From Acidisarcina polymorpha (GTDB lineage: Bacteria; Acidobacteriota; Terriglobia; Terriglobales; Acidobacteriaceae), in the NCBI RefSeq assembly GCF_003330725.1, contig NZ_CP030840.1, forward strand, positions 5,820,116-5,884,115: a DNA stretch of 64,000 bases, written 5' to 3'. Shown here in pieces: positions 27,627 to 44,274 of this stretch (position 1 is the first letter of the stretch; each line of letters opens with the position of its first letter). Both the position numbers and the translations under genes were made by a program. The notes under the pieces are model-generated. The model was not told where the DNA came from and did no database searches. It saw only the letters and a list, made by a program, of their open reading frames with translations.

Positions 27627-28376
27627 TCAGGCAGTTCCGGGCAGGAAACGATAGCCGACTCCTCGTACCGTTTGCAGGTAGATCGGGTCGGCAGGACGAT
27701 CTTCGATGTAGCGGCGCAAGCGAACGATAAAGTTATCGATGGCCCGCGTATCGGTGTCCTCGCGAACGCGCCAGACTTGTTCCAGCAACTCTTTCCGGGA
27801 GATAATCCGGTCGCGATTCTGGACGAGATAACGAAGCAGGTCAGCCTCCATCAAGGTGAGATGGATCGTCTTCTCCGGAGTGATCAACTCGAGCTTGGAG
27901 AAATCGATCGTGCGTCCCGCGAAGCTGAAGGGGAGCTCGGATGGTTCTGCAGTCGGTGGTCGACCAGGCTTTTCGCGCCGATTCCACTGCATCCGCCGCA
28001 GCAAATTCTTGAGCCGCGCCAGCAAGATTGAGAGATCAAATGGTTTGGCGAGATAATCGTCGGCGCCGGCGCTGAAGCCTCGCAGCACATCTTCAGGCCG
28101 CGCGCGCGCCGTGAGCATCAGCACTGGCACGTAACGCTCATGTTCCCGCAGCTCGGAGAGTACTTGAAAGCCGTCTTTGCCGGGAAGCATGACATCCAAA
28201 ACCACGGCATCAAAATATTCAGCGTCATCAAGGGAATTGAGCAGTAGATCGAGAGCCGCATTGCCGTCGGGAGCAATTTTGGCTCGATATCCCTCTGCCT
28301 GTAAATTGAACAACAGGCCTTGAGCGAGATGAGCTTCGTCTTCGACGATGAGGATGTTGGCAGAGTCAGCGATCAT
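27627..28376 (-). CDS. OmpR-family response regulator
   Basis: Receiver (ILIVEDE...VVLDVMLPGKDG) plus a winged-helix C-terminus (LTLMEADLLRYL...GVGYRF). Confidence 0.85.
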   Translation of the reverse strand: MIADSANILIVEDEAHLAQGLLFNLQAEGYRAKIAPDGNAALDLLLNSLDDAEYFDAVVLDVMLPGKDGFQVLSELREHERYVPVLMLTARARPEDVLRGFSAGADDYLAKPFDLSILLARLKNLLRRMQWNRREKPGRPPTAEPSELPFSFAGRTIDFSKLELITPEKTIHLTLMEADLLRYLVQNRDRIISRKELLEQVWRVREDTDTRAIDNFIVRLRRYIEDRPADPIYLQTVRGVGYRFLPGTA

Positions 28377-29341
28377 GGCACCCGCGTGAGTGATTCGCTC
28401 CTGTCCAGGAGCGCCGTCTGCGACTCGGTTGCCGGGGTGAGTAGTCGGGGGAGTTGCAAAATAATGGTGGTCCCCTTACCTTCGCCGGCGCTCTCTGCCC
28501 GGGCATCGCCGCCATGCTGGCGAACGATGCTTCGCACCAGGAATAGTCCAAGTCCAGTCCCTTTCACCTTGAGCAGAGACATATTGGGCACCCGGTAGAA
28601 GCGTTTAAAGATGCCTTTCAGGTGCGCCGCCGGAACTCCGATGCCATCATCGGTCACCCGAATCAGTATCCAGGCATCGTTTTCCAGCGAGATGCTCACA
28701 CGTACTGCTACTTGTTCGGGAGAATACTTAACCGCGTTGTCGAGCACATTGAGGATGGCCGAATGAAGATCCTGCCGGTCTCCGCTGACCGCGAGAAGCG
28801 TCTGATGGTCGACCGGTTGAAGGGTTATCCTATCGGGCTCAAGATGATATCGCTGAAGCGTGATCTGAATGCATTCCTTGACCAGCGTCAGCAGGTCGAC
28901 CTCTACTCGCACCTGGTTCTTCTTCGCCCGCTGCCCAACCTCACCCGCCTTCAGGACCTGTTCGATGGTAGCAAGGAGGCGCTCGCTATCGGCCAGCATA
29001 ATACCGTAGAACTCCTGCCTTTGGGCCTCGGGCAAGTTGCGGCGCTGCAGGGTTTCGAGGTAGAGGCGGATCGAGGCGACTGGTGTTTTCAGTTCATGAG
29101 TGACCGCATTTAGAAAGCTATCGTGATGCTCATTGCGCCGGACTTCGCGAACCAGAAAGATGGTGTTCAAGATCACTCCGGCGATGAGCAGTGCAAAGAA
29201 TGGAATCCCTAAAACCAGGGGCACCAGACGACGCCAGTTGAGGATGATCCAGCCAAATTGCAGGGTTACGGCCAAGGCAACCATGCAGACGCCGAGCGAG
29301 ATGAAAAGAGCGATAGCGCGGCGGCGGCGAATATTGCGCAT
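28373..29341 (-). CDS. Sensor histidine kinase (intramembrane-sensing type, two TM segments and no periplasmic domain)
   Basis: H-box AVTHELKTPVASI. N, G1 and G2 boxes (DNAVKYS, DDGIGV, GTGLGL). Overlaps the response regulator by 4 nt. Confidence 0.8.
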   Translation of the reverse strand: MRNIRRRRAIALFISLGVCMVALAVTLQFGWIILNWRRLVPLVLGIPFFALLIAGVILNTIFLVREVRRNEHHDSFLNAVTHELKTPVASIRLYLETLQRRNLPEAQRQEFYGIMLADSERLLATIEQVLKAGEVGQRAKKNQVRVEVDLLTLVKECIQITLQRYHLEPDRITLQPVDHQTLLAVSGDRQDLHSAILNVLDNAVKYSPEQVAVRVSISLENDAWILIRVTDDGIGVPAAHLKGIFKRFYRVPNMSLLKVKGTGLGLFLVRSIVRQHGGDARAESAGEGKGTTIILQLPRLLTPATESQTALLDRSESLTRVP

Positions 29342-31270: not shown

Positions 31271-32731
31271 TCATTGCGCGGATCGGTCAGCCCGCTCGCC
31301 ATCCGTGCGAGGTTTCATCGGCTTGATATTGCCCATAAGGTCTTTGAGATTCATACCGGACAGGGCCTCGAAAAGGGCCGGCACCTGAGAGGCGATCTTC
31401 GTCATCTCCCCGGTCAGTTTGTTGGCGCCAATATTATCGTCGCTCCCCGTGGAAACAATGGTGATCTTGTCGACCCTGGATAGCGGTTCGGCCATGGCGC
31501 GGACGACCTCGGCCATATTACTGATGAGCCGATCGACAACCGCGGCCTGGGTCCATCCCTGGTAAGCGGCGGCTTTTACGTTCATCGCCTTGGCCTCGGC
31601 TTCGCCTTTCTGGAAGATGATTGCCGCCTCAGCCTCGCCTTGCACCCGAATGACGGAAGCCTGCGCCTCCCCGCCGGTACGCGTGGCGGCGGCGCGGCCC
31701 TCGGCTTCGATCGTTAACCGGGAACGCTCAGCAGCGGCGATGTTCTCGACCCGCTGGCGCTCGATCTCGGATTGTTTCAGTACGGTGGCGATCAATTCCT
31801 TCTCGTGGCGCAGGATCTCTGCCTCCTGCACCTTGATCTGCTGCTCCTTCTCGATCTGCTGGATCTTCACCTGCGCGGCGATCACCTGTTGCTGCATGAC
31901 ATTGGTTTGAAGCTCATAGGCCTTGTCGGCCTGCGCTTCCTGTCTTCGGCTTTGCTCCATGAACTGCGCTTTCTGGATGTCCAGATCTCGCTGGGCCTCC
32001 GCCTGTTTGGCGAGCGAAGCAGTCTCCGCAATGACCCGCTCCTGATCGGCGGCGGACTTGGCGACAGCCGCCTCGCGGAGAGCGTTCGCCCGGCGGATCG
32101 CAGTATCGCGCTCCGCCTCGGCGGCTGCGATTTCGGCATCGCGGCGAATGCGGGCAATATCCGGACGGCCCATATTAGTGATGTATTCGTTCTGGTCGCG
32201 GACTTCCTTGATGGTGAACGAAATCACTTCCAGGCCCATCTTGCTCATGTCTGCCGCACAGGTGGAGCGCATCCGGTCGGCAACCATCTCGGGCTCCTTG
32301 ACAATCTGCTCGACGGTGAGCTGGCCGATGATGCCTCGCAGATGGCCTTCCATAACCAGTCGGATAAGGCCTTCCCGTTCCGGCGGGGTCTTGGTGAGGA
32401 ACTGTTCGGCAGCGGTGAGGATGGACTCGTTGTCCGAGCGGACCTTGATCTGTGCGACCGCTTCGACAGTGACCGCGACGCCCTGCTTGGTGTAGAGGTC
32501 CTGCTTGGGCGCCACGTCGAAGCTCATCAGTTCAAGCGAAAGCTGGCGGGCGTTTTCGACGACCGGAAAGATGATGGCGCCATGGCCGCGAATGATTCGT
32601 GGACCCCGGAAGCCATAGACAATGACCGCTTCGTTGGGGCCTGCTTTCCGAAACATCTTCGCGATAAGCGCGAGAATGACAAGGGTTGCGGCAACGGCGA
32701 GTCCGATGATAATCACCACTAAGCTGGGCAT
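31271..32731 (-). CDS. Flotillin-family SPFH/band-7 protein (YqiK-like)
   Basis: N-terminal TM segment, an SPFH domain, then a long EA-rich coiled coil (AEAERDTAIRRANALREAAVAKSAADQERV...). Confidence 0.8.
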   Translation of the reverse strand: MPSLVVIIIGLAVAATLVILALIAKMFRKAGPNEAVIVYGFRGPRIIRGHGAIIFPVVENARQLSLELMSFDVAPKQDLYTKQGVAVTVEAVAQIKVRSDNESILTAAEQFLTKTPPEREGLIRLVMEGHLRGIIGQLTVEQIVKEPEMVADRMRSTCAADMSKMGLEVISFTIKEVRDQNEYITNMGRPDIARIRRDAEIAAAEAERDTAIRRANALREAAVAKSAADQERVIAETASLAKQAEAQRDLDIQKAQFMEQSRRQEAQADKAYELQTNVMQQQVIAAQVKIQQIEKEQQIKVQEAEILRHEKELIATVLKQSEIERQRVENIAAAERSRLTIEAEGRAAATRTGGEAQASVIRVQGEAEAAIIFQKGEAEAKAMNVKAAAYQGWTQAAVVDRLISNMAEVVRAMAEPLSRVDKITIVSTGSDDNIGANKLTGEMTKIASQVPALFEALSGMNLKDLMGNIKPMKPRTDGERADRSAQ

Positions 32732-34195: not shown

Positions 34196-35521
34196 ATGAC
34201 TCAGTTTTGGTCCAATTGGCGGCGGTTGTGGTGCATGTGGCTTGCGGGCGTCACAATTTCCGCGACCGTGGCTTTTCCCCAGCCGCCGCATCTGAGCGTG
34301 CCCGGTCAGCCGACCCACGCGTGGACGGAGTTTACTTCAGAAGGGGTAAGCGTTCGCGCGATCATCAACGGGCCGGATTGCCCGTCCGTCAGCGTTGACG
34401 GCGAGTCGATCCCGATGGCGGTGCGCGCGAAGTCCAGCGCCGAGTTCCCGGTGACTACTTGTCAGACGCTCATTCCTTCAGGTGCGAAATCCGCTGTGGT
34501 CAATGGACAGACGCTCGCGCTTGCGCCGCGCAAGCTGAGGCGGATTGTGGTGATTGGCGACACGGGTTGCCGTTTAAAGGGCGCCGAGGTGCAAGATTGC
34601 AACGATCCGAAAATATGGCCGTTCGCCACCATGATCAGGAACGCCGCGGCTAAGCATCCAGACTTGGTGATCCACGTCGGCGACTACTATTACCGGGAGA
34701 CCTCTTGTCCGGAGCAGCGGCCGGGCTGCAACGGCAGTCCTCATGGAGACCTCTGGGACAGCTGGCGCCTGGACTTCTTCGATCCGGCTTCAAGTCTGTT
34801 GGCCGCCGCACCCTGGATCTTTGCCCGCGGAAATCACGAACAATGTGGGCGAGGTTCGAGCGGCTGGTTTCGCTTTCTCGACGCTGCGTCGGCTCCGTTG
34901 ACGTGCCCCGCGACCTCGGCGCCGTTTGCCGTACACTTCGACCGGCTTCAGCTCGATGTCATCGACACTGCCGATGTTGTTGACAAGCAGCTCAGTATCG
35001 ATCGGCTCGCGTTCTATCAGAAGCAGATATCTGCGATTCCGGCTAACGCTTCGGTCAATAAGAAACAGGAGGCGACCTGGGTGATCACCCACAAGCCGCT
35101 TTGGGGCTACGAACTCACGCGTGCCGGGCAATCCATGATCGCGCAAAATCCCATGCTTGCGGCCGCGGCCGAGATGATGGATACACCGAGAAGCGTCCAA
35201 TTGCCGGGTGTGGACCTGTTGCTTGCCGGGCATATTCATCTTTTTGGCGCGCTCGACTTCTCGAGCAATCAGGCATCGTTGCGGCCTGCCCAACTCATTG
35301 TCGGCGATAGCGGCACTGCGCTCGATTCGGCGGACGTTCGCAGTGGTGAAGAGACGATCGACGGTCTCTTGGCAAAGTATGTGGTCAAAGGCAACTTCGG
35401 TTATTTTGTTCTAGATCGAAAAAAGAAGGGCTGGACCGGCATCCTCTACAGCACCGAAGATGCGCCGCTGGTGCGATGCACCTATCACCAGCGGCAGATC
35501 GAATGTCAGGCTGTGGAGTAG
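34196..35521 (+). CDS. Secreted calcineurin-like metallophosphoesterase (purple-acid-phosphatase-like)
   Basis: GDTG, GDYYY, GNHE and the GHIHLF metal-ligand series. N-terminal signal or TM segment. Confidence 0.75.
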   Translation: MTQFWSNWRRLWCMWLAGVTISATVAFPQPPHLSVPGQPTHAWTEFTSEGVSVRAIINGPDCPSVSVDGESIPMAVRAKSSAEFPVTTCQTLIPSGAKSAVVNGQTLALAPRKLRRIVVIGDTGCRLKGAEVQDCNDPKIWPFATMIRNAAAKHPDLVIHVGDYYYRETSCPEQRPGCNGSPHGDLWDSWRLDFFDPASSLLAAAPWIFARGNHEQCGRGSSGWFRFLDAASAPLTCPATSAPFAVHFDRLQLDVIDTADVVDKQLSIDRLAFYQKQISAIPANASVNKKQEATWVITHKPLWGYELTRAGQSMIAQNPMLAAAAEMMDTPRSVQLPGVDLLLAGHIHLFGALDFSSNQASLRPAQLIVGDSGTALDSADVRSGEETIDGLLAKYVVKGNFGYFVLDRKKKGWTGILYSTEDAPLVRCTYHQRQIECQAVE

Positions 35522-35527
35522 AGCCAA

Positions 35528-37714
35528 TTACTCGTGTCTCCGGAGGGGATGGCCGGTCGGTCCAGACCCTGTGTTGCCGGTTGCTTCGACGACGGTCAGG
35601 GTAATTGGACTCATATCCGCAAGGCCGCCTCCGGCAGCTGTCAGCAACAGCTGACTCGAACCGAACCCTGCTGTCTTTGAGGCGGTGAGCGTAAGCACGC
35701 TGTTCCCGGCGCCGGGCGCGGAGAAGACTGCCGGGGCAAATTTTGCCGTAACTCCAGGAGGCAATCCACTCAGTGCGAGAGTTACCGAGGCATTGAATCC
35801 GCTGCTCGCGATAGTCTTCACCAGAAGCGTTTCAGTGTCGCCTCGGGACAGTGTGGCTTGCGGCCTGCTTACGCTGAGTGTCAGGCTGCTGAGTGGGACG
35901 CCGCCCCAGGCGGTCACCAGCTTCTCCGCATCGACTGAACCCAGGCCAGAGGCCGGATCGTATCCGGCGGCTGCGGAATAGCCGGTCACTCCGGGCACGC
36001 TGTTATTGCCGGAGACAATATCGTGGAAAACGCCGCCACCGGCCGCTGCCAGCTTATAAAGCTGAGGGTTGGCATTCCCCAAGTGCGCTTGCATTTTTTG
36101 TTCCACCAGAGCGAGCAGGCCTGCAAATGAAGGCGCGGCCGCCGAGGTACCGCTGAAGACATATAAGCCGCCACTCACCTGCACCAGATAACCATCATGG
36201 CCAGCCGCGGATAAGGCCACGTCGGGGAGATCGCGCCTTCCATCCTTGGGCACTCCCGAGCCAGTCTGCCAGGCCGGCTTCGGATAGACGCTACTGGCGC
36301 CGCCTCCAGTCGACCATAAGCCAGAAGACCCACTCTCGTTCCAGACGACCTCAGGAATATAGCCAAGGGCCGACTCCTCTCCGACACCATTCGTCTTTCC
36401 CCAAAAGATTGCCGGGTTACCCAGGTCATTGAATTCCGTGCCGCCCACACAAGTGTTGTAAGGCGTAGAACACATTCCGTTCACGCCTCTTCCATGTGTC
36501 GCCCGGGTTGCATTCGCGGAGTCGCACCCGGCCGCTCCGCTATCTCCCGCCGAGACCAGGATGGTCATTCCTTGCACCGCCGCCTGCTGCCATAAGGAAT
36601 TCAGGAAACTGTTGCCGCCGGCGCCAAGTGACGCCTCGCAAAGCCCGTAACTGAGGCTCACAATGGACGCTACGTTGCGGTTGACCGCATAAAGCGCCGA
36701 GAGGAAGACGCCATCGCTGACTGCGGTCGATGCCGAGGTAACGAAGTCTATCGTGGCCTTGCTGGCGACCGCGCCCGACCATTCCACATCAAGCATCGAT
36801 TCGTAGTAATCGCCTTGGCTTGCTCTCCCTGGATCGCTCCCGTTCACTATAACGACCGGGTCTTTTGCCGCTAATCCAAACTGGCTGCGAAACGACCGGA
36901 TATCGCTGAGGGTAATGTCCGACCGACCGAGAATGGCGATCGTCACACCGGAACCATCGTAGGCCTGATGGTACAGCGAACTGACGTCATAGATGGCGGC
37001 AAAATCCGCGGGAGACAAATAGTGGGTCCCCCCCGCCGAGTATTCCGGCGTGACTTTTTGGGATCGGTGTTGGGGAGTGCTGAACAAATCATGAAGCGAA
37101 ACCACTCCATTGATGACCCCGGACAGCGCCAGCGGAATGGTCGGCTCGGTGGCGTTCGCTAGGTGATCCTCTCCACCGAAACGGTAGGTGCGCATAGAAG
37201 TGTGGAAAGCCGCCTCCACCTGTCCGCTGGTGCCGCTAAAGAGCAGCGTGCGGTGGTTTGCGGCTATCTCATCGACTTGCAGACCGTAGCGTTCCAGCCA
37301 TCGCTGCACCTGCTCGATATCGGCATTCGACGCACCGAAGTGCTCTGCGTAGATTTCCGGCGTCAGCCACTGGCGGTAAAGGGGTGAATCAGGATTTTGT
37401 TGCGCCACGAGCAGCGCATCCAACCCCGACTGTTGTGAGGCATCCGGCTTGAGCTCGAGCAAAATGTGATGAAAGGGGCGGTCACTTTCAACGGTTCCCG
37501 TCTGGTAGGCCAGAAGCGCCTGAGGCAGGGTGTTGCCATAGAGAACCACTCGGTCCTCATCATCCACGGGGAGCACGACCCGATCGAACGGATGCACGGC
37601 CTCTAAGGCAGCATCGACCGAAGACTGCGCGAAAGCTGCGGTGAGTAAGGCGGAGGGCAGCAGAACAAACGAGAGAGCAGAGAGGGAAAGAAAGGAACAT
37701 TTTCCGTAGCGCAT
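35528..37714 (-). CDS. S53 sedolisin/kumamolisin-family serine peptidase with pro-domain and C-terminal extension
   Basis: Signal peptide. Pro-kumamolisin activation domain. Catalytic Glu/Asp region, SAGDSGAAGC, and GTSAAAPSFAG (catalytic Ser). Confidence 0.85.
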   Translation of the reverse strand: MRYGKCSFLSLSALSFVLLPSALLTAAFAQSSVDAALEAVHPFDRVVLPVDDEDRVVLYGNTLPQALLAYQTGTVESDRPFHHILLELKPDASQQSGLDALLVAQQNPDSPLYRQWLTPEIYAEHFGASNADIEQVQRWLERYGLQVDEIAANHRTLLFSGTSGQVEAAFHTSMRTYRFGGEDHLANATEPTIPLALSGVINGVVSLHDLFSTPQHRSQKVTPEYSAGGTHYLSPADFAAIYDVSSLYHQAYDGSGVTIAILGRSDITLSDIRSFRSQFGLAAKDPVVIVNGSDPGRASQGDYYESMLDVEWSGAVASKATIDFVTSASTAVSDGVFLSALYAVNRNVASIVSLSYGLCEASLGAGGNSFLNSLWQQAAVQGMTILVSAGDSGAAGCDSANATRATHGRGVNGMCSTPYNTCVGGTEFNDLGNPAIFWGKTNGVGEESALGYIPEVVWNESGSSGLWSTGGGASSVYPKPAWQTGSGVPKDGRRDLPDVALSAAGHDGYLVQVSGGLYVFSGTSAAAPSFAGLLALVEQKMQAHLGNANPQLYKLAAAGGGVFHDIVSGNNSVPGVTGYSAAAGYDPASGLGSVDAEKLVTAWGGVPLSSLTLSVSRPQATLSRGDTETLLVKTIASSGFNASVTLALSGLPPGVTAKFAPAVFSAPGAGNSVLTLTASKTAGFGSSQLLLTAAGGGLADMSPITLTVVEATGNTGSGPTGHPLRRHE

Positions 37715-37912
37715 CGAGGCTCCGTCGGGGGAGAGTGCGGCATGTGCCAGCCCGCTCTCTTCATCGGCGCCAGATTAAAAAGCGCTAAGGATTGTGATTA
37801 AAAGCGCAACAGAAAAGCGCAGCTGCCGAAAACCGGCAACTGCGCTGCTATGAATTCCCGTTCATTGGAGAAGCTAATTCTTCGAACCCTAAATGCCGAA
37901 TTGGCCTCTGCC

Positions 37913-38851
37913 CTAAACGGCGGACGCACCGGCCGGCCTTGGATTTTGCGGGTCATACTGCGCGACCTTTATGTCCTTAGCCAATCCCACCTTCTTCAGC
38001 AGCCAGATGCCGTAGAAGTTCGGATCGAACTCATACCATTTCAGGCCGTGGCGTGCTGAAACTGGATGGGCGTGGTGGTTATTGTGCCATCCTTCTCCGC
38101 CTGTGAGCAGAGCGACCCACCAGTTGTTGCGGGAGTCGTCACGGGTCTCGAAGCGGCGCGAGCCCCAGAGATGCGTCGCCGAGTTGACCAGCCAGGTTGC
38201 GTGCAGCCCGAGGGTGACGCGCAGGAAGATCCCCCACATGACCAGCGGCCAGCCGCCAACGGCCAGGAGGATTACGCCGACAGCCGTTAAGGGAAGCCAG
38301 TGATATTTGCTGAGCAGCACATGAAAGCGGTCCTTGGCGAGATCGGGAGCATAACGGCTGAGCAGAGCGGTGTCCTGGTGAAGGGATTCACCATGCATAA
38401 TCCACCCTGCATGAGCCCACCAGGTGCCATCCACCGGAGTATGCGGATCCCCGGGTTTGTCGCTGTGCTGATGGTGAATGCGGTGGGTCGAAACCCAGAA
38501 AATCGGTCCGCCTTCGAGCGCCAGCGTTCCGCAAATGGCAAGAAAATATTCGACCCATTTGGGAGTTTTGTAACCACGATGAGTGAGCAACCGGTGGTAT
38601 CCCATGCCAATGCCGACATTGATCGCAAAGAAGTATAAGACCACCGAGACGATCAGGGCCTTCCAGGAAAACATGAACAAAGCGGCGACGGCGCCGACGT
38701 GGAAGGCCACCATGAACGCGGTAGTCATCCAGTTGATTTTTTTCCTGGCGAGGTGCCGGTCAGGGGTGGATGCGGTGGGTGTGGCGCGGATCGAAGCTTT
38801 CGCTGGTTGAACGGGGAGGTTCAGTTCTTCTTCCAAGAGTTCGAGGGGCAT
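37913..38851 (-). CDS. Acyl-CoA (Δ9-type) fatty-acid desaturase
   Basis: Three His boxes: HRLLTH, HRIHHQHSD and HNNHH. KINW N-terminal motif. Confidence 0.85.
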   Translation of the reverse strand: MPLELLEEELNLPVQPAKASIRATPTASTPDRHLARKKINWMTTAFMVAFHVGAVAALFMFSWKALIVSVVLYFFAINVGIGMGYHRLLTHRGYKTPKWVEYFLAICGTLALEGGPIFWVSTHRIHHQHSDKPGDPHTPVDGTWWAHAGWIMHGESLHQDTALLSRYAPDLAKDRFHVLLSKYHWLPLTAVGVILLAVGGWPLVMWGIFLRVTLGLHATWLVNSATHLWGSRRFETRDDSRNNWWVALLTGGEGWHNNHHAHPVSARHGLKWYEFDPNFYGIWLLKKVGLAKDIKVAQYDPQNPRPAGASAV

Positions 38852-38984
38852 GGGCTGGCAGCTATCCTTGGGTTAAACGAATCAACCTGTCTAAACCGTA
38901 TCAGTCGCCGCAGGAACGTGGTTGTAACAGTTTTGTAAGCGGGCGCTTGCTGTGTTCAAAATGAACCGGAAGTCAGCCTCGTCG

Positions 38985-40037
38985 TCAGTCTCCTGAAAGC
39001 TCCCAGGGACCCTGACTCGATCCTGGTGTGGCCGAGTGCCCAATTGGGTGCACGACAGTCGACGCCGGAAAACATCGAACGCAATCGCCGCCCGCCTGCT
39101 TTGCCGCGCGCAGCGTGCTTTCCGCTTCCCGCAGCACCAGCAGCGGAGAGCGTCCGCCACTTTGCGCAATGCCGAAGCTCGCGGTCACAGAAACTGAAGC
39201 CTTGAGGATATCGAAGGGGCGTCTTCGTATGCAGTCCTGCAATCGCTGCGCCATGCCCCAGGCGTCGCGCATCGAACAGCCCGGCATGGCGATCAGAAAT
39301 TCGTCCTCACCACACCGTCCGGCTAGATCGTAGCTGCGGAGGTGACGGCGAAGACGGCTGGCAAACTGGCGCAGGATGTTATCGCCGCCGTCGTATCCAT
39401 ATCGTTGATTGACGAGCGAAAAGTGATCCAAATCGAAGAGCAGAAATGCCAGGGGACTGCCCATTCGCTGTGCCCGGTCGGTTTCAAGAAAGAGCCGGGT
39501 GAGGAGCGACTCGCGGTTCCATAGACCAGTCAGCGAATCGCGGCTGGCATGGAAGCGAGCCGCGTCAACTGACTCCAGCATCTCTGCATGTATCGCCCTC
39601 ACCCGGAACGCCGCGTGGAGACTGACGCGGAGATCAAATTCATTCACGGGTTTGGTCAGAAAGTCGTCTATGTGGATGCCTCGCGCGAGCGCCCGGCTCC
39701 CCTTGCCGGGAGATTCAGAAGAGTCAGTCAAGGCGATCGTCCAGCATCGGCAGCGCGACGATTGCCAGTGAAACTGATGGAGAAGTGCGACGCCATCCAG
39801 CCCAGCAAGAGCGTTATCGACGATCAGAATGGGTGCAGGTTCTCCTTCGTTCAAGGCTTCGAGGAGCGCCGCCCCGTCGTCAGCCGTGATGACCTGATAC
39901 CCCCAATCGGCGAGTAGATCCCTCAGGATGCTTCGCTCTAAGGAGTCAGCTGCGCCGACCAGAATCCTGGAACGCAGAGCCAGGCCAGATGATGACGCCG
40001 AGATAGCCGATTGATTTGCCTGAGAGAGCTTACCCAT
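38985..40037 (-). CDS. Response regulator with C-terminal GGDEF domain bearing a degenerate GEDEF active-site motif and an intact RxxD I-site
   Basis: Receiver domain (ILVGAAD...ILIVDNALAGLDG). The GGDEF domain has RSYDLAGRCGEDEF aligned to RxxD-x4-GG(D/E)EF, with the second Gly replaced by Glu. Confidence 0.8.
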   Translation of the reverse strand: MGKLSQANQSAISASSSGLALRSRILVGAADSLERSILRDLLADWGYQVITADDGAALLEALNEGEPAPILIVDNALAGLDGVALLHQFHWQSSRCRCWTIALTDSSESPGKGSRALARGIHIDDFLTKPVNEFDLRVSLHAAFRVRAIHAEMLESVDAARFHASRDSLTGLWNRESLLTRLFLETDRAQRMGSPLAFLLFDLDHFSLVNQRYGYDGGDNILRQFASRLRRHLRSYDLAGRCGEDEFLIAMPGCSMRDAWGMAQRLQDCIRRRPFDILKASVSVTASFGIAQSGGRSPLLVLREAESTLRAAKQAGGDCVRCFPASTVVHPIGHSATPGSSQGPWELSGD

Positions 40038-40156
40038 CTCCCATCTATCGGTGATTGGCGAAAGGGGATCAGGCAGTGGCTACAAACCAGAACAAGTCTT
40101 TTCACTTTGGTACTCGCAGTTCTTGATCAGTTTCGATTTGGAACCATCGCGTTTTC

Positions 40157-41470
40157 CTAGCCCTGCGCCACCGGTTCGCGATGGTCGCGTGCCATCTCGT
40201 GAGGCCGCCGCTCGATCATTTGGAGGACTTGCCGACAAACACCCGCGGCTACTTCGCGCTCCAACGGGATCAATCGACCGCCTACTCTACAAAGCGCCCA
40301 GTCCTTGCCAGACTCGATGCTCATTCGCTCCTCCGTTGCAGGGATCCGCCGCAGGGCGTCACTGGCTTTGGGCGCGATCCTGAAATTGGACTTGAGCTGG
40401 GCTGCTTGAATCAAGCGAAGCAGCGATGGTCCAAGTCCGGTCAGCCAAAACTCGCGCTGATATTTCTTCGCCGTATAAGCCAGATGGATCAGCTCTCCAA
40501 GCGCATCCGGGCCGATGAAGGTGGTCCGGGCTAGATCCAATATCAGGTGACGACCGGTTCTGACGGCGAGCCGGGCCTCCTCTTCAAAGTTCGCGACGGG
40601 CGTGCCCGTTAGTCTCCCGGAGATCCGCAGTATGGTTGTCGAGCCGATCTCTTCCATGACGACACCGTTCATCCAGTGACCGGGCTTCTGGGCGGCGCTA
40701 GCCGCGAGTTGCAAGGCCATATAAACGACCATGCCAAGGGCGTCTCGAAGATACCGCGCACCCAAACGCGCCGGTTCTTGGCAGGTCCGGAAAAACCACT
40801 CCAGGCCCTGTCGCTGCATCCACAAAGGCGCGCGTCGCAGCATTCCGGCGAGAATGTCGAGCGAGCCTCCGATTCCAATGCAGACGGGAACTTTCAAGCG
40901 ATGACTATGCATCGCGAGCCATTTCTCCTGCTTCGGACTGCCGAGAGCCACCAGCAGAATATCCGGCTTGGCTGCTTCAATCTGTAGCAGAATCCGCTCA
41001 TGATCCATCTCGTCCAGGTCCTGTATCTCGGGACAACAGCGTCCTACGATCCTTACTCCTGGATAGCTGAGCGCCATCCACTCCGCTGCGCCCTCGGATG
41101 AGGCCTCGCAGGAGCCGAGCAGGAAGATCCCATATCCGCGGTCGGCTGAAAGTTCTGCGATCTTCGGTACCAGGTCTGCGCCGCTGACGCGCTCTCGCAA
41201 AGCAGAACGCATCATGCGCGAGGCCCAAACCAAGGGCATGCCATCGGGCAGGACCAGGTAACACGCGGCAAGGATGTCCTTCAACTCCTGGTCGTGGATG
41301 GAAGTGATGAGGAAGTCCACATTGGCAGTAGCGATGTGATGAAAGCCGCCCTCGTGGATACCATTTTCAATGGCCTCTACAGCTTCGTCCATCGACACGT
41401 TATCGATGGGAACGCCTATCATTGCGACACAACCGCTTCTGAGACGTTGCATGAATGATCCCCGGTTCAT
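40157..41470 (-). CDS. WecB/TagA/CpsF-family glycosyltransferase fused to a C-terminal STAS (anti-sigma-antagonist-like) domain
   Basis: N-terminal IGVPIDNVSMDEAV...LPDGMPLVWA...LGSPKQEKW is the WecG/TagA signature. The C-terminal ~110 aa ILRISGRLTGTPVANFEEEARLAVRTGRHLILDLARTTFIGPDALGELIHLA match a STAS fold pattern. The start is taken at ATG 41470 (MNRGSFMQRL). Confidence 0.7.
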   Translation of the reverse strand: MNRGSFMQRLRSGCVAMIGVPIDNVSMDEAVEAIENGIHEGGFHHIATANVDFLITSIHDQELKDILAACYLVLPDGMPLVWASRMMRSALRERVSGADLVPKIAELSADRGYGIFLLGSCEASSEGAAEWMALSYPGVRIVGRCCPEIQDLDEMDHERILLQIEAAKPDILLVALGSPKQEKWLAMHSHRLKVPVCIGIGGSLDILAGMLRRAPLWMQRQGLEWFFRTCQEPARLGARYLRDALGMVVYMALQLAASAAQKPGHWMNGVVMEEIGSTTILRISGRLTGTPVANFEEEARLAVRTGRHLILDLARTTFIGPDALGELIHLAYTAKKYQREFWLTGLGPSLLRLIQAAQLKSNFRIAPKASDALRRIPATEERMSIESGKDWALCRVGGRLIPLEREVAAGVCRQVLQMIERRPHEMARDHREPVAQG

Positions 41471-41829
41471 TTGAACTTGGACGAGGGACGTCCTCTGCTC
41501 GCTTTTCCGATTGGTGAGGCGACGGCTCTTCTGAGCAGAGACGCGCCTATTTCGCCGTCGGTCGAGCCGCGGAAGTCGGTCCAGAGCTGAAGTACAGCTG
41601 CTGTTTTGCGGGCAAGTCGCTAGGCACACTTCTCCGCCGGAGAAGTACGCTGAGTGGGTTCGCTCCGCATTGCAGTGGCTGTTCTTCTGGGCTAATCGTC
41701 CAGATATAAATGCGTTTGTTGGAGCGATATTAGGGTAAGCAAGCCTGCGGATGCCACCCCAATTCATCGGGCGTCGCCCGGATGTCGAGGTTCCGCTCCA
41801 GAACGGGAAATCCTACTGTTGAGTCGGCA

Positions 41830-44100
41830 TTACAAATTTTTTCCGAAGAACTCCGTGGCGCGTTGATAGAGCACCGAACAGGCGGCCGGTTTGTCGACGA
41901 TCCGGGTCTGCCCGGGATAGAGGGAAATCTCGGCATATTTGCGCGCTTGCACTAATTCGCTCTGCAGTTCCATGGATTGGTCCGGATGAATCTTAAGATT
42001 CCCCGCGCCATGAGCAACCAGCAGGCTCCCCTTGAGGAACTTGGAGTAATCCAGCGGAGAAGAAGAAAGGTATCCATCCTGGTTTTGCACGGGATCGCCA
42101 AGGTAGCGCTCCGCATAGGCGGAGTCTTGCTGGAACCAATCGACGACCGGCGCCACTGCGAAGCCCGCCTTGAAGAACAGCGGGGCATGGAGCATGGCAT
42201 TAATCGTGATTGCGCCGCCGAAGCCTTCCCCCCAGATGCCGAGCCGCTCCGGATCAATGTAGGGGAGTGCCTGGAAGAAGTGAACGGCGTCCTTAAGGTC
42301 GGTAATCTCCTGACCCTCAAATCGCTGGTGAATGTATTCTTCGTAGATGTGCCCGCGGCCGGCAGTGCCGCGATTGTCTAGCGCGAGAACGATAAATCCT
42401 CGCTGAGCCAACATCTGGTTCCATATCGACACGTCGCCTTCCCACGTATCGTGAACGGCCTGCCGTCCCGGGCCTCCGTAGATATAGATCACGGCGGGAT
42501 ATTTTTTCGCTGCGGTAAAGCCCGGAGGCCTGATCATCGAGGCGTTCATCTCGATGCCGTCGTGGCTTTTGATGGTGATGAAATCGACTTGTTGCAGCGC
42601 CGGTTTCATGGGACTGCGCACCCTGCTGTTGTCGAGCACAAAAACCTTGGCGGCAGCGATGGACTCGGTCTGGGAGCCGAGCTGGTATACCGTCCGTATC
42701 CACGGTTTGACGACGGTCGAGAAACGATCGACGAATGCGGCAGCATTCGGCGCGAAGATCGCTTCATGGGTCCCGCTTTCCCCGGTGATGCGTTTGGCCT
42801 CATTGTTGCCGGTGTTACCGCCCTCAAACCTCACCGAGTACAGCTGCCGATCAAGCGAGCTCTTTTCGGTTGAAGTGTAGTAGATGATGCCGTCCTTCTC
42901 ATTGACAGCATTGAGCGAGGTGACCTCCCATTTGCCGTCCGTGAGTTGACGCACCAGTTTGCCATCAAGATCGTAAAGAAAGAGGTGGCGATAGCCGGAC
43001 TTTTCATTCGACCAAAGGAACTGTGGCGTACTCTTCGAGAAGTAAAGAATATCGCTGAGGTTGATCCAATACGGGTCGGTGTCAGTCAAGATGGTTCGGG
43101 CCGTGCCGGTGTGTGTGTCAGCTATAAGTAGCTCAAGCTTTGTTTGCGCACGATTCAGACGCTCGACCGCCAGTCGCTTGCTATCCGGGAGCCATTTCAT
43201 CCGTGGGAGGTAAATGTCTTTTTCGGTACCCGTATTGATTGCCACGGGCGTCGACTTAGCGGCCACGTTGAGGACCAGGACACGAACCGTCGGGTTGGCC
43301 GTTCCCGGGGTTGGGTAGTCAATCGTTTCTGCCGGGCCGTCTTCGTCCGGCTGAAAAGGTGGGGTATAAAGGGCCACTCCTTTGAGGTTGAACTCGTAAT
43401 AAGCGATTTGCCGTGAATCGGGCGACCACTCGTATCCGTGCCGGGTACCGAGTGAGTCCGGATACATCCAGTCCAGTTCACCGCGGCGAAGGATCTCGGT
43501 TCCGCCATGAGTGATCTCTCGGGCTTGGCCTCCCGCAGTGCTGATCATCCACAGGTTGTGCTGGCGAACAAAACCCACCCAGTGGCCGTCGGGAGAAAGC
43601 TGCACGTCCCCAATTACTTCTTCGCCGGAGATCAAGGTGCGAGTCTGCAGGGTCTTCCGATCCAGCCAGACTATACTTCGATCGCTGTGCAGCAGAAGGC
43701 CGGCGCTGTCAGGGCTCCACTCCAAGCCAACCTTCTCCCGAGGAGGTGGAGCCATCGTGCCCTTATCACCCTTCGCCGTGGCGGGGAAGAGATGGTCGAT
43801 CTGGCTTTGGTTCAGCAAAACGGTTGGCTGCTTGCCGAGTGAGTCCACTCCATCGAGTTCGAGGCGAAGGCCAAATCCACTATCGAGCGACTTAAAGTAG
43901 ACGATATTGCCGCTATCGGGACTCCACCAGAATTGCTTGCCCTGGGACTCTGGAGGCACGGCCGCAGCGCAAACGTCCTCGATACCGATGCCGGGCGATT
44001 TCGCGGCGGCGGGAGGCAGATCTCCCCCGGGGCGCTGAGCGAGAAGAATGCAGCCTTGCGGAAGAAACAATGCCAACGAAAGCGTAAGCCATTTCCGCAA
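41830..44100 (-). CDS. S9-family serine peptidase (dipeptidyl-peptidase IV-like: N-terminal β-propeller plus C-terminal α/β-hydrolase)
   Basis: A TTG start gives the signal peptide (M)RKWLTLSLALFLPQGCILLA. DPPIV_N-like propeller repeats. GWGEGFGG (GxSxG-type with Ser to Gly? read as GEGFGG). A catalytic Asp/His region lies in the C-terminal hydrolase fold. Confidence 0.75.
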   Translation of the reverse strand: MRKWLTLSLALFLPQGCILLAQRPGGDLPPAAAKSPGIGIEDVCAAAVPPESQGKQFWWSPDSGNIVYFKSLDSGFGLRLELDGVDSLGKQPTVLLNQSQIDHLFPATAKGDKGTMAPPPREKVGLEWSPDSAGLLLHSDRSIVWLDRKTLQTRTLISGEEVIGDVQLSPDGHWVGFVRQHNLWMISTAGGQAREITHGGTEILRRGELDWMYPDSLGTRHGYEWSPDSRQIAYYEFNLKGVALYTPPFQPDEDGPAETIDYPTPGTANPTVRVLVLNVAAKSTPVAINTGTEKDIYLPRMKWLPDSKRLAVERLNRAQTKLELLIADTHTGTARTILTDTDPYWINLSDILYFSKSTPQFLWSNEKSGYRHLFLYDLDGKLVRQLTDGKWEVTSLNAVNEKDGIIYYTSTEKSSLDRQLYSVRFEGGNTGNNEAKRITGESGTHEAIFAPNAAAFVDRFSTVVKPWIRTVYQLGSQTESIAAAKVFVLDNSRVRSPMKPALQQVDFITIKSHDGIEMNASMIRPPGFTAAKKYPAVIYIYGGPGRQAVHDTWEGDVSIWNQMLAQRGFIVLALDNRGTAGRGHIYEEYIHQRFEGQEITDLKDAVHFFQALPYIDPERLGIWGEGFGGAITINAMLHAPLFFKAGFAVAPVVDWFQQDSAYAERYLGDPVQNQDGYLSSSPLDYSKFLKGSLLVAHGAGNLKIHPDQSMELQSELVQARKYAEISLYPGQTRIVDKPAACSVLYQRATEFFGKNL

Positions 44101-44274
44101 AGTGAATGTCTTTTGTAGGGAACCCAACCACGCAGAATGATCCTTACGACTCTCTTCGACGAAACGCAAAGCTCACCTCGGAATAGGATGTGTTTGTTTC
44201 CAAGCTAACATCCCAATCTCTCGGGAATCCGGGCGTTCGCCGCTTCGGCTCCAAACTGCTCCCTAAACTGCTCT

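Follow-up and report, generated by a model that had tools for sequence, protein, structure and literature searches.

What can a GGDEF protein still do once the second glycine of its signature has been replaced while the inhibitory site (I-site) of the same domain is kept? The question is raised by a gene of Acidisarcina polymorpha, located on the minus strand of the 64,000-nucleotide stretch of DNA analyzed here (contig NZ_CP030840.1, positions 5,820,116 to 5,884,115; hereafter the window) and encoding a response regulator with a GGDEF domain, to which we refer as the regulator. Degenerate GGDEF proteins represent about a quarter of all GGDEF proteins; to our knowledge, few of them have assigned roles, and cyclic di-GMP (c-di-GMP) signaling is essentially unexplored in Acidobacteria, an abundant but little-studied soil phylum. 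The evidence as a whole is best explained, with moderate confidence, by a dead cyclase predicted to act as a c-di-GMP receptor or adaptor of the PopA/PelD/CdgA/SgmT class. The gene and the features of its active site (A-site) are listed below; here and in the following lists, correspondences with PleD are those of a HMMER alignment.

38985..40037, minus strand: regulator gene, receiver (REC), stalk, and degenerate GGDEF domain, 350 residues (open reading frame list and Pfam)
39087..39548, minus strand: GGDEF domain PF00990, residues 164-317 (117.7 bits against a cutoff of 23.8, E = 5.5e-34)
39297..39311, minus strand: degenerate signature G243-E-D-E-F247 (GEDEF)
39306..39308, minus strand: codon GAG of E244, in place of the second glycine, PleD G369 (read from the sequence)
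Residue R241: PleD R366, ahead of the signature (R-x-GGEEF)
Residue G243: PleD G368, signature
Residue D245: PleD E370, signature and metal binding
Residue E246: PleD E371, signature
Residue F247: PleD F372, signature
39417..39419, minus strand: S207, replacing PleD K332
39087..39089, minus strand: G317, replacing PleD R446, KxxGRN reading KQAGGD
Residue K313: PleD K442, phosphate binding

The reading frame and motif reported in a preliminary description of this DNA do exist, and the alignment given there is correct when judged against PleD: within RSYDLAGRCGEDEF (residues 234-247, DNA 39338-39297, minus strand), E244 occupies the place of the second catalytic glycine, and the RxxD motif is kept, R234 and D237 matching PleD R359 and D362. 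Functional cyclases carry the signature [G/A/S]G[D/E]E[F/Y] (PMC8835794, PMC3974145), from which the GEDEF of the regulator departs by its second residue, and in Caulobacter CC3396/PdeA a domain with the same GEDEF motif is inactive as a cyclase (PMC4823724, PMC8835794). In PleD complexes, the side chain of K332 touches the beta-phosphate (bioRxiv 10.1101/2025.08.22.671821). From the phosphate-contacting set K332/K442/R446, the regulator retains only K442 (K313), so that, as aligned, its active site combines a spoiled hairpin (G369 to E) with the disappearance of two phosphate-binding side chains (K332 to S and R446 to G).

A search of 5.8 billion proteins returned 377 homologues at E <= 1e-20, and close-homologue counts were made on the 118 sequences of at least 290 residues among the best 120 of these 377. 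Position 244 is a glutamate in 103 of the 118, the RxxD-containing motif lying within the domain matched at E 5.5e-34. A sequencing error at the glycine codon, which the preliminary description had named as able to overturn its reading, is ruled out because these 103 homologues come from independent assemblies. The 14/118 homologues with glycine at 244 carry glutamine at the fourth signature position (GGDQF or AGDQF). We also surveyed one genome per Genome Taxonomy Database (GTDB) species, giving 80 loci, 77 of which belong to Acidobacteriaceae/Terriglobales and were used for residue counts. Position 244 varies widely among these 77 representatives (E30 K18 M15 D7 G3 N2 V1 A1); the position equivalent to K332 is never lysine (G41 S25 A6 T5), and that equivalent to R446 is P42 K15 R13 G5. 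As the three out-group loci (Lentisphaerae, Nitrospira, and Anaerolineales) have GGDEF or GGDQF, this variation suggests that the second glycine was lost early in the family and was then free to vary. The signature rule, the dead GEDEF of PdeA, the loss of K332 and R446, and the family-wide loss of the glycine with free variation at 244 together make it very likely that the regulator has lost cyclase activity, which supports the catalytic inactivity put forward in the preliminary description. One close homologue was seen in a damaged state: in a metagenome-assembled genome (L040:10001-10923), a gene with 57% identity to the regulator in its C-terminal part is broken across three frames, which reflects a pseudogene or else a faulty assembly.

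If the regulator makes no c-di-GMP, what has kept its GGDEF domain? The residues of the former inhibitory site provide the main clue.

39327..39338, minus strand: primary I-site RxxD, R234-S-Y-D237 (PleD R359/D362)
39243..39245, minus strand: R265, third primary I-site residue (PleD R390)
Residue R188: PleD R313, secondary c-di-GMP contact

The spacing between RxxD and the signature is five residues, as in PleD. R234, D237, and R188 are each present in 77/77 species representatives and R265 in 74/77, and R234, D237, and R265 are kept in 117-118 of the 118 best homologues (R265 in 117), so the earlier statement that the inhibitory RxxD is retained extends to the whole family. This frozen R359/D362, R390, and R313 set suggests that c-di-GMP binds where it once inhibited the enzyme. 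PopA, PelD, CdgA, and SgmT are degenerate GGDEF proteins that act as c-di-GMP receptors (PMC3974145), and all four combine, like the regulator, a non-functional signature with an RxxD I-site for c-di-GMP; the sequence features expected of the PopA/PelD class, namely RxxD with an R390-equivalent arginine and a degenerate A-site, are found in the regulator. PopA of Caulobacter crescentus is, as is the regulator, a receiver protein without enzymatic output, and acts via protein partners (PMC3974145). The architectures differ: PopA has two receivers, PelD has transmembrane segments and a GAF domain, and SgmT is a kinase, whereas the regulator has one receiver and one GGDEF domain. The regulator is therefore likened to the PopA class by its features, not by sequence-level membership, and its family also keeps invariant guanine- and metal-binding residues. 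By analogy with these receptors, the regulator would make no c-di-GMP and would instead bind it at the old inhibitory site, and a ligand-driven change of dimer or oligomer would be relayed through the stalk to a protein partner.

The overall architecture fits such a relay. The only domains detected with Pfam and NCBIfam are REC and GGDEF, an EAL domain not being found, and the National Center for Biotechnology Information (NCBI) entry "GGDEF domain protein" (Acidisarcina polymorpha) matches the regulator over its full length with 100% identity. An AlphaFold2 model (input alignment of 32 sequences, mean predicted local distance difference test score [pLDDT] 82) displays a (beta/alpha)5 receiver followed by a single long helix (residues 133-165) and then the GGDEF domain, with the signature in the turn joining strands 238-241 and 246-252. 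The best full-length Foldseek matches in the Protein Data Bank (PDB) are PleD, DgcR, WspR, and SiaD, and isolated GGDEF-domain crystal structures superpose with root-mean-square deviations of 1.6-2.3 A and a target-normalised template modeling (TM) score of about 0.9. In HMMER searches, PleD structure sequences (1w25, 2wb4, 9g85/86) match at E about 4e-36, the top sequence or structure matches including PleD 1w25/2v0n (E about 1e-36), DgcR 6zxm, WspR 3bre, and SiaD 7e6g (E 1.5e-28). According to the model, the regulator is thus a member of the GGDEF superfamily with an intact GGDEF fold, and its architecture is of the WspR/DgcR type (REC-stalk-GGDEF). WspR, DgcR, and PleD share with it the domain order, the long stalk helix, and the I-site geometry; unlike the regulator, they are active enzymes with GG[D/E]EF, K332, R446, and a canonical acidic receiver pocket, and PleD has an extra adaptor receiver where the regulator has a single one. 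Two equivalog families were considered and ruled out: that of PleD (NCBIfam NF007135, REC-REC-GGDEF), given a score of 144 bits against a cutoff of 474 and the single receiver, and that of SiaD (NF038266), given 130 bits against 290. The regulator is an orphan response regulator from an uncharacterised family found throughout Acidobacteriaceae.

Is the receiver a phosphorylation switch? We aligned it by MAFFT with CheY, Spo0F, PhoB, and the first receiver of PleD (D1).

39624..39968, minus strand: atypical REC domain, residues 24-138 (Pfam, just over cutoff; the Response_reg match PF00072 covers residues 32-138 with 39 bits against 30.2)
39948..39953, minus strand: A29-A30, at the positions of the Mg2+-binding acidic pair D12/D13 of CheY (MAFFT alignment)
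39816..39818, minus strand: D74, phospho-acceptor aspartate, CheY D57 (alignment)
39543..39641, minus strand: stalk or linker helix joining REC to GGDEF, residues 133-165 (AlphaFold2 secondary structure)

Compared with a canonical CheY-like receiver, the acidic pair is missing while the equivalents of D57, T87, and K109 are present. D31 comes one residue past A29/A30, and the Pfam match starts only beyond the acidic-pair segment; across the family these two positions are S/E/C/T followed by P/A/S. The D74 position is an aspartate in 113 of the 118 close homologues and in 66 of the 77 species representatives, and the switch residues are S/T in 55/77 and lysine in only 20/77. The two domains also evolve very differently, since the mean identity to the query is 23% for the receiver, with 1/107 columns at least 95% conserved, and 53% for the GGDEF domain, with 45/155 such columns, a contrast that in these alignments places the GGDEF domain, and not the receiver, under strong purifying selection. 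Because the acidic Mg2+ pair is missing and the receiver is fast-evolving, canonical phosphorylation control is doubtful, which weakens the suggestion of a phosphorylation-dependent effector made in the preliminary description; the receiver appears atypical and possibly phosphorylation-independent, and would more likely serve for dimerisation or as an adaptor than as a phosphorylation switch of the canonical kind. Several patches of the GGDEF domain outside the standard motif are invariant as well (E185-T-D-R-x-Q-R191, C254, S293-x-G-R-S-P298, V301-L-R-E304, and E306) and may provide a surface for binding a partner or for additional contacts with a ligand.

The preliminary description had overlooked a further set of conserved residues, those of the guanine and metal pocket.

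Residue D202: PleD D327, metal binding
Residue N210: PleD N335, guanine binding
Residue D219: PleD D344, guanine binding

PleD complexes with GTP-alpha-S and guanosine tetra- or pentaphosphate ((p)ppGpp) show that N335 and D344 hold the guanine and that D327 and E370 hold Mg2+, and (p)ppGpp was found occupying the PleD active site (bioRxiv 10.1101/2025.08.22.671821). The equivalents of all four residues are present in the regulator, and D202, N210, D219, and D245 are kept in 76-77 of the 77 representatives, E246 in 67/77, and lysine or arginine at the K313 position in 77/77. Across the aligned family, the I-site and the guanine/metal pocket are thus frozen while position 244 varies. The invariance of D219 (77/77, never serine) also rules out a Hypr GGDEF, the cyclic GMP-AMP (cGAMP) synthase type in which a serine replaces the guanine-specifying aspartate equivalent to PleD D344 (PMC8835794).

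Several observations weigh against the receptor reading. The guanine and metal residues are near-invariant, and E246 and K313 mostly conserved, which would be needless in a receptor acting through its I-site only; D74, T104 (T87), and K129 (K109) are all present in the regulator itself, so that it may still be phosphorylated; and the neighbors of the gene differ by genus (MqnD- and HemN-like genes, extracytoplasmic function [ECF] sigma factor, desaturase), none being conserved family-wide. Because a pure I-site receptor needs no guanine pocket, some nucleotide probably still binds the A-site. Could this be the substrate of a residual diguanylate cyclase that tolerates a non-canonical signature? 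The retention of the metal- and guanine-binding residues plus E246 would suit such an enzyme, and AGDEF and SGDEF proteins are active in spite of their non-canonical motifs (PMC3974145). However, known active enzymes vary at the first glycine only, (G/S/A)G(D/E)EF, the GEDEF of PdeA is inactive, position 244 takes E, K, M, D, N, V, or A within the family, and K332 and R446 are lost too, so that we regard persistent cyclase activity as very improbable. The main rival, and one that could also be an addition to c-di-GMP binding, is guanine-nucleotide sensing: the crippled A-site would bind GTP or (p)ppGpp without turnover, as in PdeA, the GTP or alarmone level being read either alone or in a coincidence detector with c-di-GMP at the I-site. 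PdeA has the identical GEDEF, which is cyclase-dead yet GTP-binding (PMC4823724; bioRxiv 10.1101/2025.08.14.670421), and the conserved D202/N210/D219/D245 are the very residues that hold guanine and Mg2+ in the PleD complexes. Of the traits of a PdeA-type sensor, however, the regulator displays the dead GEDEF A-site with its guanine pocket and not the adjacent EAL output: the GEDEF domain of PdeA regulates a neighboring EAL phosphodiesterase, whereas the regulator has no EAL or other enzymatic domain to regulate and has instead a receiver and an RxxD/R390 I-site. Moreover, the loss of the phosphate-contacting K332 and R446 equivalents should weaken triphosphate binding, and nucleotide sensing alone leaves the perfect conservation of the I-site unexplained. 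This rival is a live one, which we nevertheless consider unlikely, and the c-di-GMP receptor or adaptor is the reading that we retain.

The degenerate-GGDEF receptor class is already known, and the regulator would be an uncharacterised, family-wide conserved member of it. The evolutionary pattern is neat, if not surprising to the specialist, and will have little practical use before a phenotype or a partner comes to light. It nevertheless offers a clean natural experiment, in which the signature tolerates many residues in place of its second glycine but the I-site and the guanine pocket stay frozen, and a family present in most Acidobacteriaceae makes a test case for how a dead cyclase turns receptor and for whether a single domain can sense c-di-GMP together with a second nucleotide, GTP or (p)ppGpp.

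With which genes might such a receptor work? The immediate surroundings of the regulator are as follows.

41830-44169, minus strand: dipeptidyl peptidase IV (DPP-IV) peptidase
40157-41422, minus strand: WecG-STAS (WecG/TagA/CpsF plus STAS), upstream neighbor (Pfam)
40038..40156, minus strand: 119-bp gap between WecG-STAS and the regulator (fold z-score -0.26)
37913-38851, minus strand: membrane fatty-acid desaturase PF00487, downstream neighbor (Pfam)
37816-37846, minus strand: intrinsic-terminator-like hairpin after the desaturase, 14-bp GC-rich stem and T-run (fold z-score -3.9)
35528-37714, minus strand: sedolisin-type peptidase

Further out, one flank contains a metallophosphoesterase, a helix-turn-helix protein, a flotillin, CorA, a HisKA kinase with an OmpR-type regulator, and a heavy-metal ATPase, and the other flank META, CrcB, and an MPAB-type oxygenase. 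A scan of 37700-42000 detected no terminator in the 119-bp gap and no sigma70-like promoter, the latter result being uninformative for Acidobacteria; the 133-bp gap between the regulator and the desaturase is no more stably folded than shuffled sequence (z +0.14), and Rfam revealed no riboswitch or other RNA element in the whole window. The hairpin at 37816-37846 is the only convincing terminator in 37.7-42 kb and the first one downstream of the run formed by WecG-STAS, the regulator, and the desaturase. As no terminator was found before it, co-transcription of these three genes in this strain is possible.

The preliminary description had correctly placed the WecG-STAS gene directly upstream on the same strand (40157..41422, or up to 41767, with the 119-bp gap). 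Its longest open reading frame, extending to 41767, has 536 residues, the database product 421 residues with a start at 41422, and a start at 41452 agrees better with the homologues. Among close relatives (at least 50% identity, n=13, the window locus included), WecG-STAS lies directly upstream in 5/13 (window, L081, L082 [= L083], L084, and L085), with gaps of 83-182 bp, and is absent from this position in L001-L003 and L086-L090. Searching by tblastn with the window neighbors, 10 kb on each side, we found WecG or STAS near the regulator homologue in 0/80 species-level loci. In the L003 genome, WecG-STAS (L091) lies about 340 kb from the regulator-desaturase block, both being on one 5.15-Mb contig, and keeps the left-hand block of L085 (chalcone-synthase-like gene, CrcB, META), which implies that the junction in the window joins two independently conserved synteny blocks; the juxtaposition would then be a lineage-specific gene order. 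META directly adjoins WecG-STAS in L082, L084, L085, and L091, and the DPP-IV gene (41830-44169) intervenes only in this genome, which looks like a local insertion or rearrangement.

The WecG-STAS fusion itself is widespread in Acidobacteriaceae. Its distant relatives head exopolysaccharide (EPS) clusters, with NusG-like, GT2, Poly_export, and initiating transferase genes, and some relatives (P0173, P0195, P0207, and P0167) bear an N-terminal PilZ domain with a NISASG motif, which indicates that this enzyme family is linked to c-di-GMP elsewhere. The window copy has no PilZ domain and lies outside any EPS cluster: inspection of the 41423-41767 extension by eye against P0173 and P0195 disclosed no RxxxR...[D/N]xSxxG remnant, and Pfam found no polysaccharide export or polymerase gene in the window neighborhood of the regulator. 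Its STAS domain reads FIGPDALG, the SpoIIAA counterpart being FMDSSGLG, so that the position of the phosphorylatable serine is a proline. Acidisarcina polymorpha is known to build cellulose "chambers" in a study that makes no mention of c-di-GMP, PilZ, or the regulator gene (PMC9693552).

The preliminary description had gone further and read the adjacency as an operon forming a polysaccharide module, with the regulator as a c-di-GMP- or phospho-gated controller of WecG-STAS, for instance by docking on its STAS domain. The two genes do lie on one strand, 119 bp apart with no terminator between them, their adjacency is kept in the five loci named above, and related enzymes with an N-terminal PilZ domain occur in EPS clusters. 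There are also precedents for STAS or STAS-like proteins that bind or control GGDEF proteins, namely HsbA-HsbD, BgrV-BgrR, and SiaC, which targets the stalk of SiaD (PMC8457831). As in these systems, a STAS domain is encoded in the window beside a GGDEF protein with a stalk. But SiaC, HsbA, and BgrV are free-standing, phosphorylatable proteins that activate a working cyclase, whereas the STAS domain in the window is fused to a glycosyltransferase, lacks the phospho-serine, and has as its neighbor a GGDEF domain that is probably dead, in an adjacency that is not conserved, being missing in 8/13 close relatives and throughout the 80 species representatives. The separation by about 340 kb in a sister genome, where WecG-STAS sits within its own block, the lack of other polysaccharide genes nearby, and the presence of a conserved box before the regulator start with or without WecG-STAS speak against this control too; the polysaccharide module is thus weakened, and we consider control of WecG-STAS by the regulator improbable. 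A variant limited to the Acidisarcina lineage, in which the regulator would serve in trans as the c-di-GMP sensor of a PilZ-less WecG-STAS, is speculative and rather doubtful, as is its supposed mechanism, in which c-di-GMP at the I-site would change the stalk or dimer and cause docking on the non-phosphorylatable STAS domain. If true, it would reverse SiaC-SiaD and HsbA-HsbD, where the STAS protein controls the GGDEF protein, and would provide a functional stand-in for the PilZ domain of the related Terracidiphilus EPS-cluster enzymes.

The constant neighbor among close relatives, also overlooked in the preliminary description, is the desaturase downstream. It is found on the same strand directly after the regulator in 13/13 close relatives, with about 80% identity, and within 0.1-4 kb in distant relatives (L004, L005, L008, L009, L020, L021, L026, and L034); no terminator lies between regulator and desaturase, the strong one being located past the latter. 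The regulator might accordingly work with the desaturase, for example by coupling a c-di-GMP or envelope signal to membrane-lipid unsaturation. However, all these genomes come from one bacterial family, so that the order may be inherited and not selected, a desaturase gene is missing from the surroundings in most of the family (Terracidiphilus-like members), and no precedent was found in the literature, which was not searched in depth. We therefore hold this partnership to be highly doubtful. In the Terracidiphilus-like members, an MqnD-like gene stands upstream and a HemN-like gene downstream, and others adjoin an ECF sigma factor.

Two short elements were noted ahead of the regulator. A CCGATAG box at 40045-40051 (minus strand) resembles the CCGATAAG box ahead of the start codons of its relatives; a CCGATAAG-like box lies about 10 nt before the regulator ATG in L001, L003, L084, L086, and L087, with or without WecG-STAS, and may act either as the -10 element of a promoter or in the initiation of translation. 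In L001-L003 and L087, the G-rich element GGGGGAGGGGGGTACC stands some 60-100 nt ahead of the regulator start; it is conserved among the GGDQF-type relatives and absent from the window.

The kinase of the flank, encoded at 28373-29341, was considered as a cognate partner and rejected, as its partners are an OmpR-type regulator and a P-type ATPase for heavy metals (also in L089) and nothing ties it to the regulator studied here. The segment 25048-29341 (minus strand) encodes this small HisKA kinase, the OmpR-type regulator, which has a 4-bp overlap with the kinase, and the P-type ATPase with its heavy-metal-associated (HMA) domain, and is a probable metal-responsive two-component unit; the two-transmembrane N-terminus of the kinase was seen only in the sequence of a homologue. 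The set formed by CorA, the kinase, the OmpR-type regulator, and the ATPase travels with the regulator-desaturase block in relatives. The same block includes a flotillin/SPFH-domain protein (31271-32731, minus strand) and a calcineurin-like metallophosphoesterase (34196-35521, plus strand), and the latter also adjoins the desaturase in L089 and L090.

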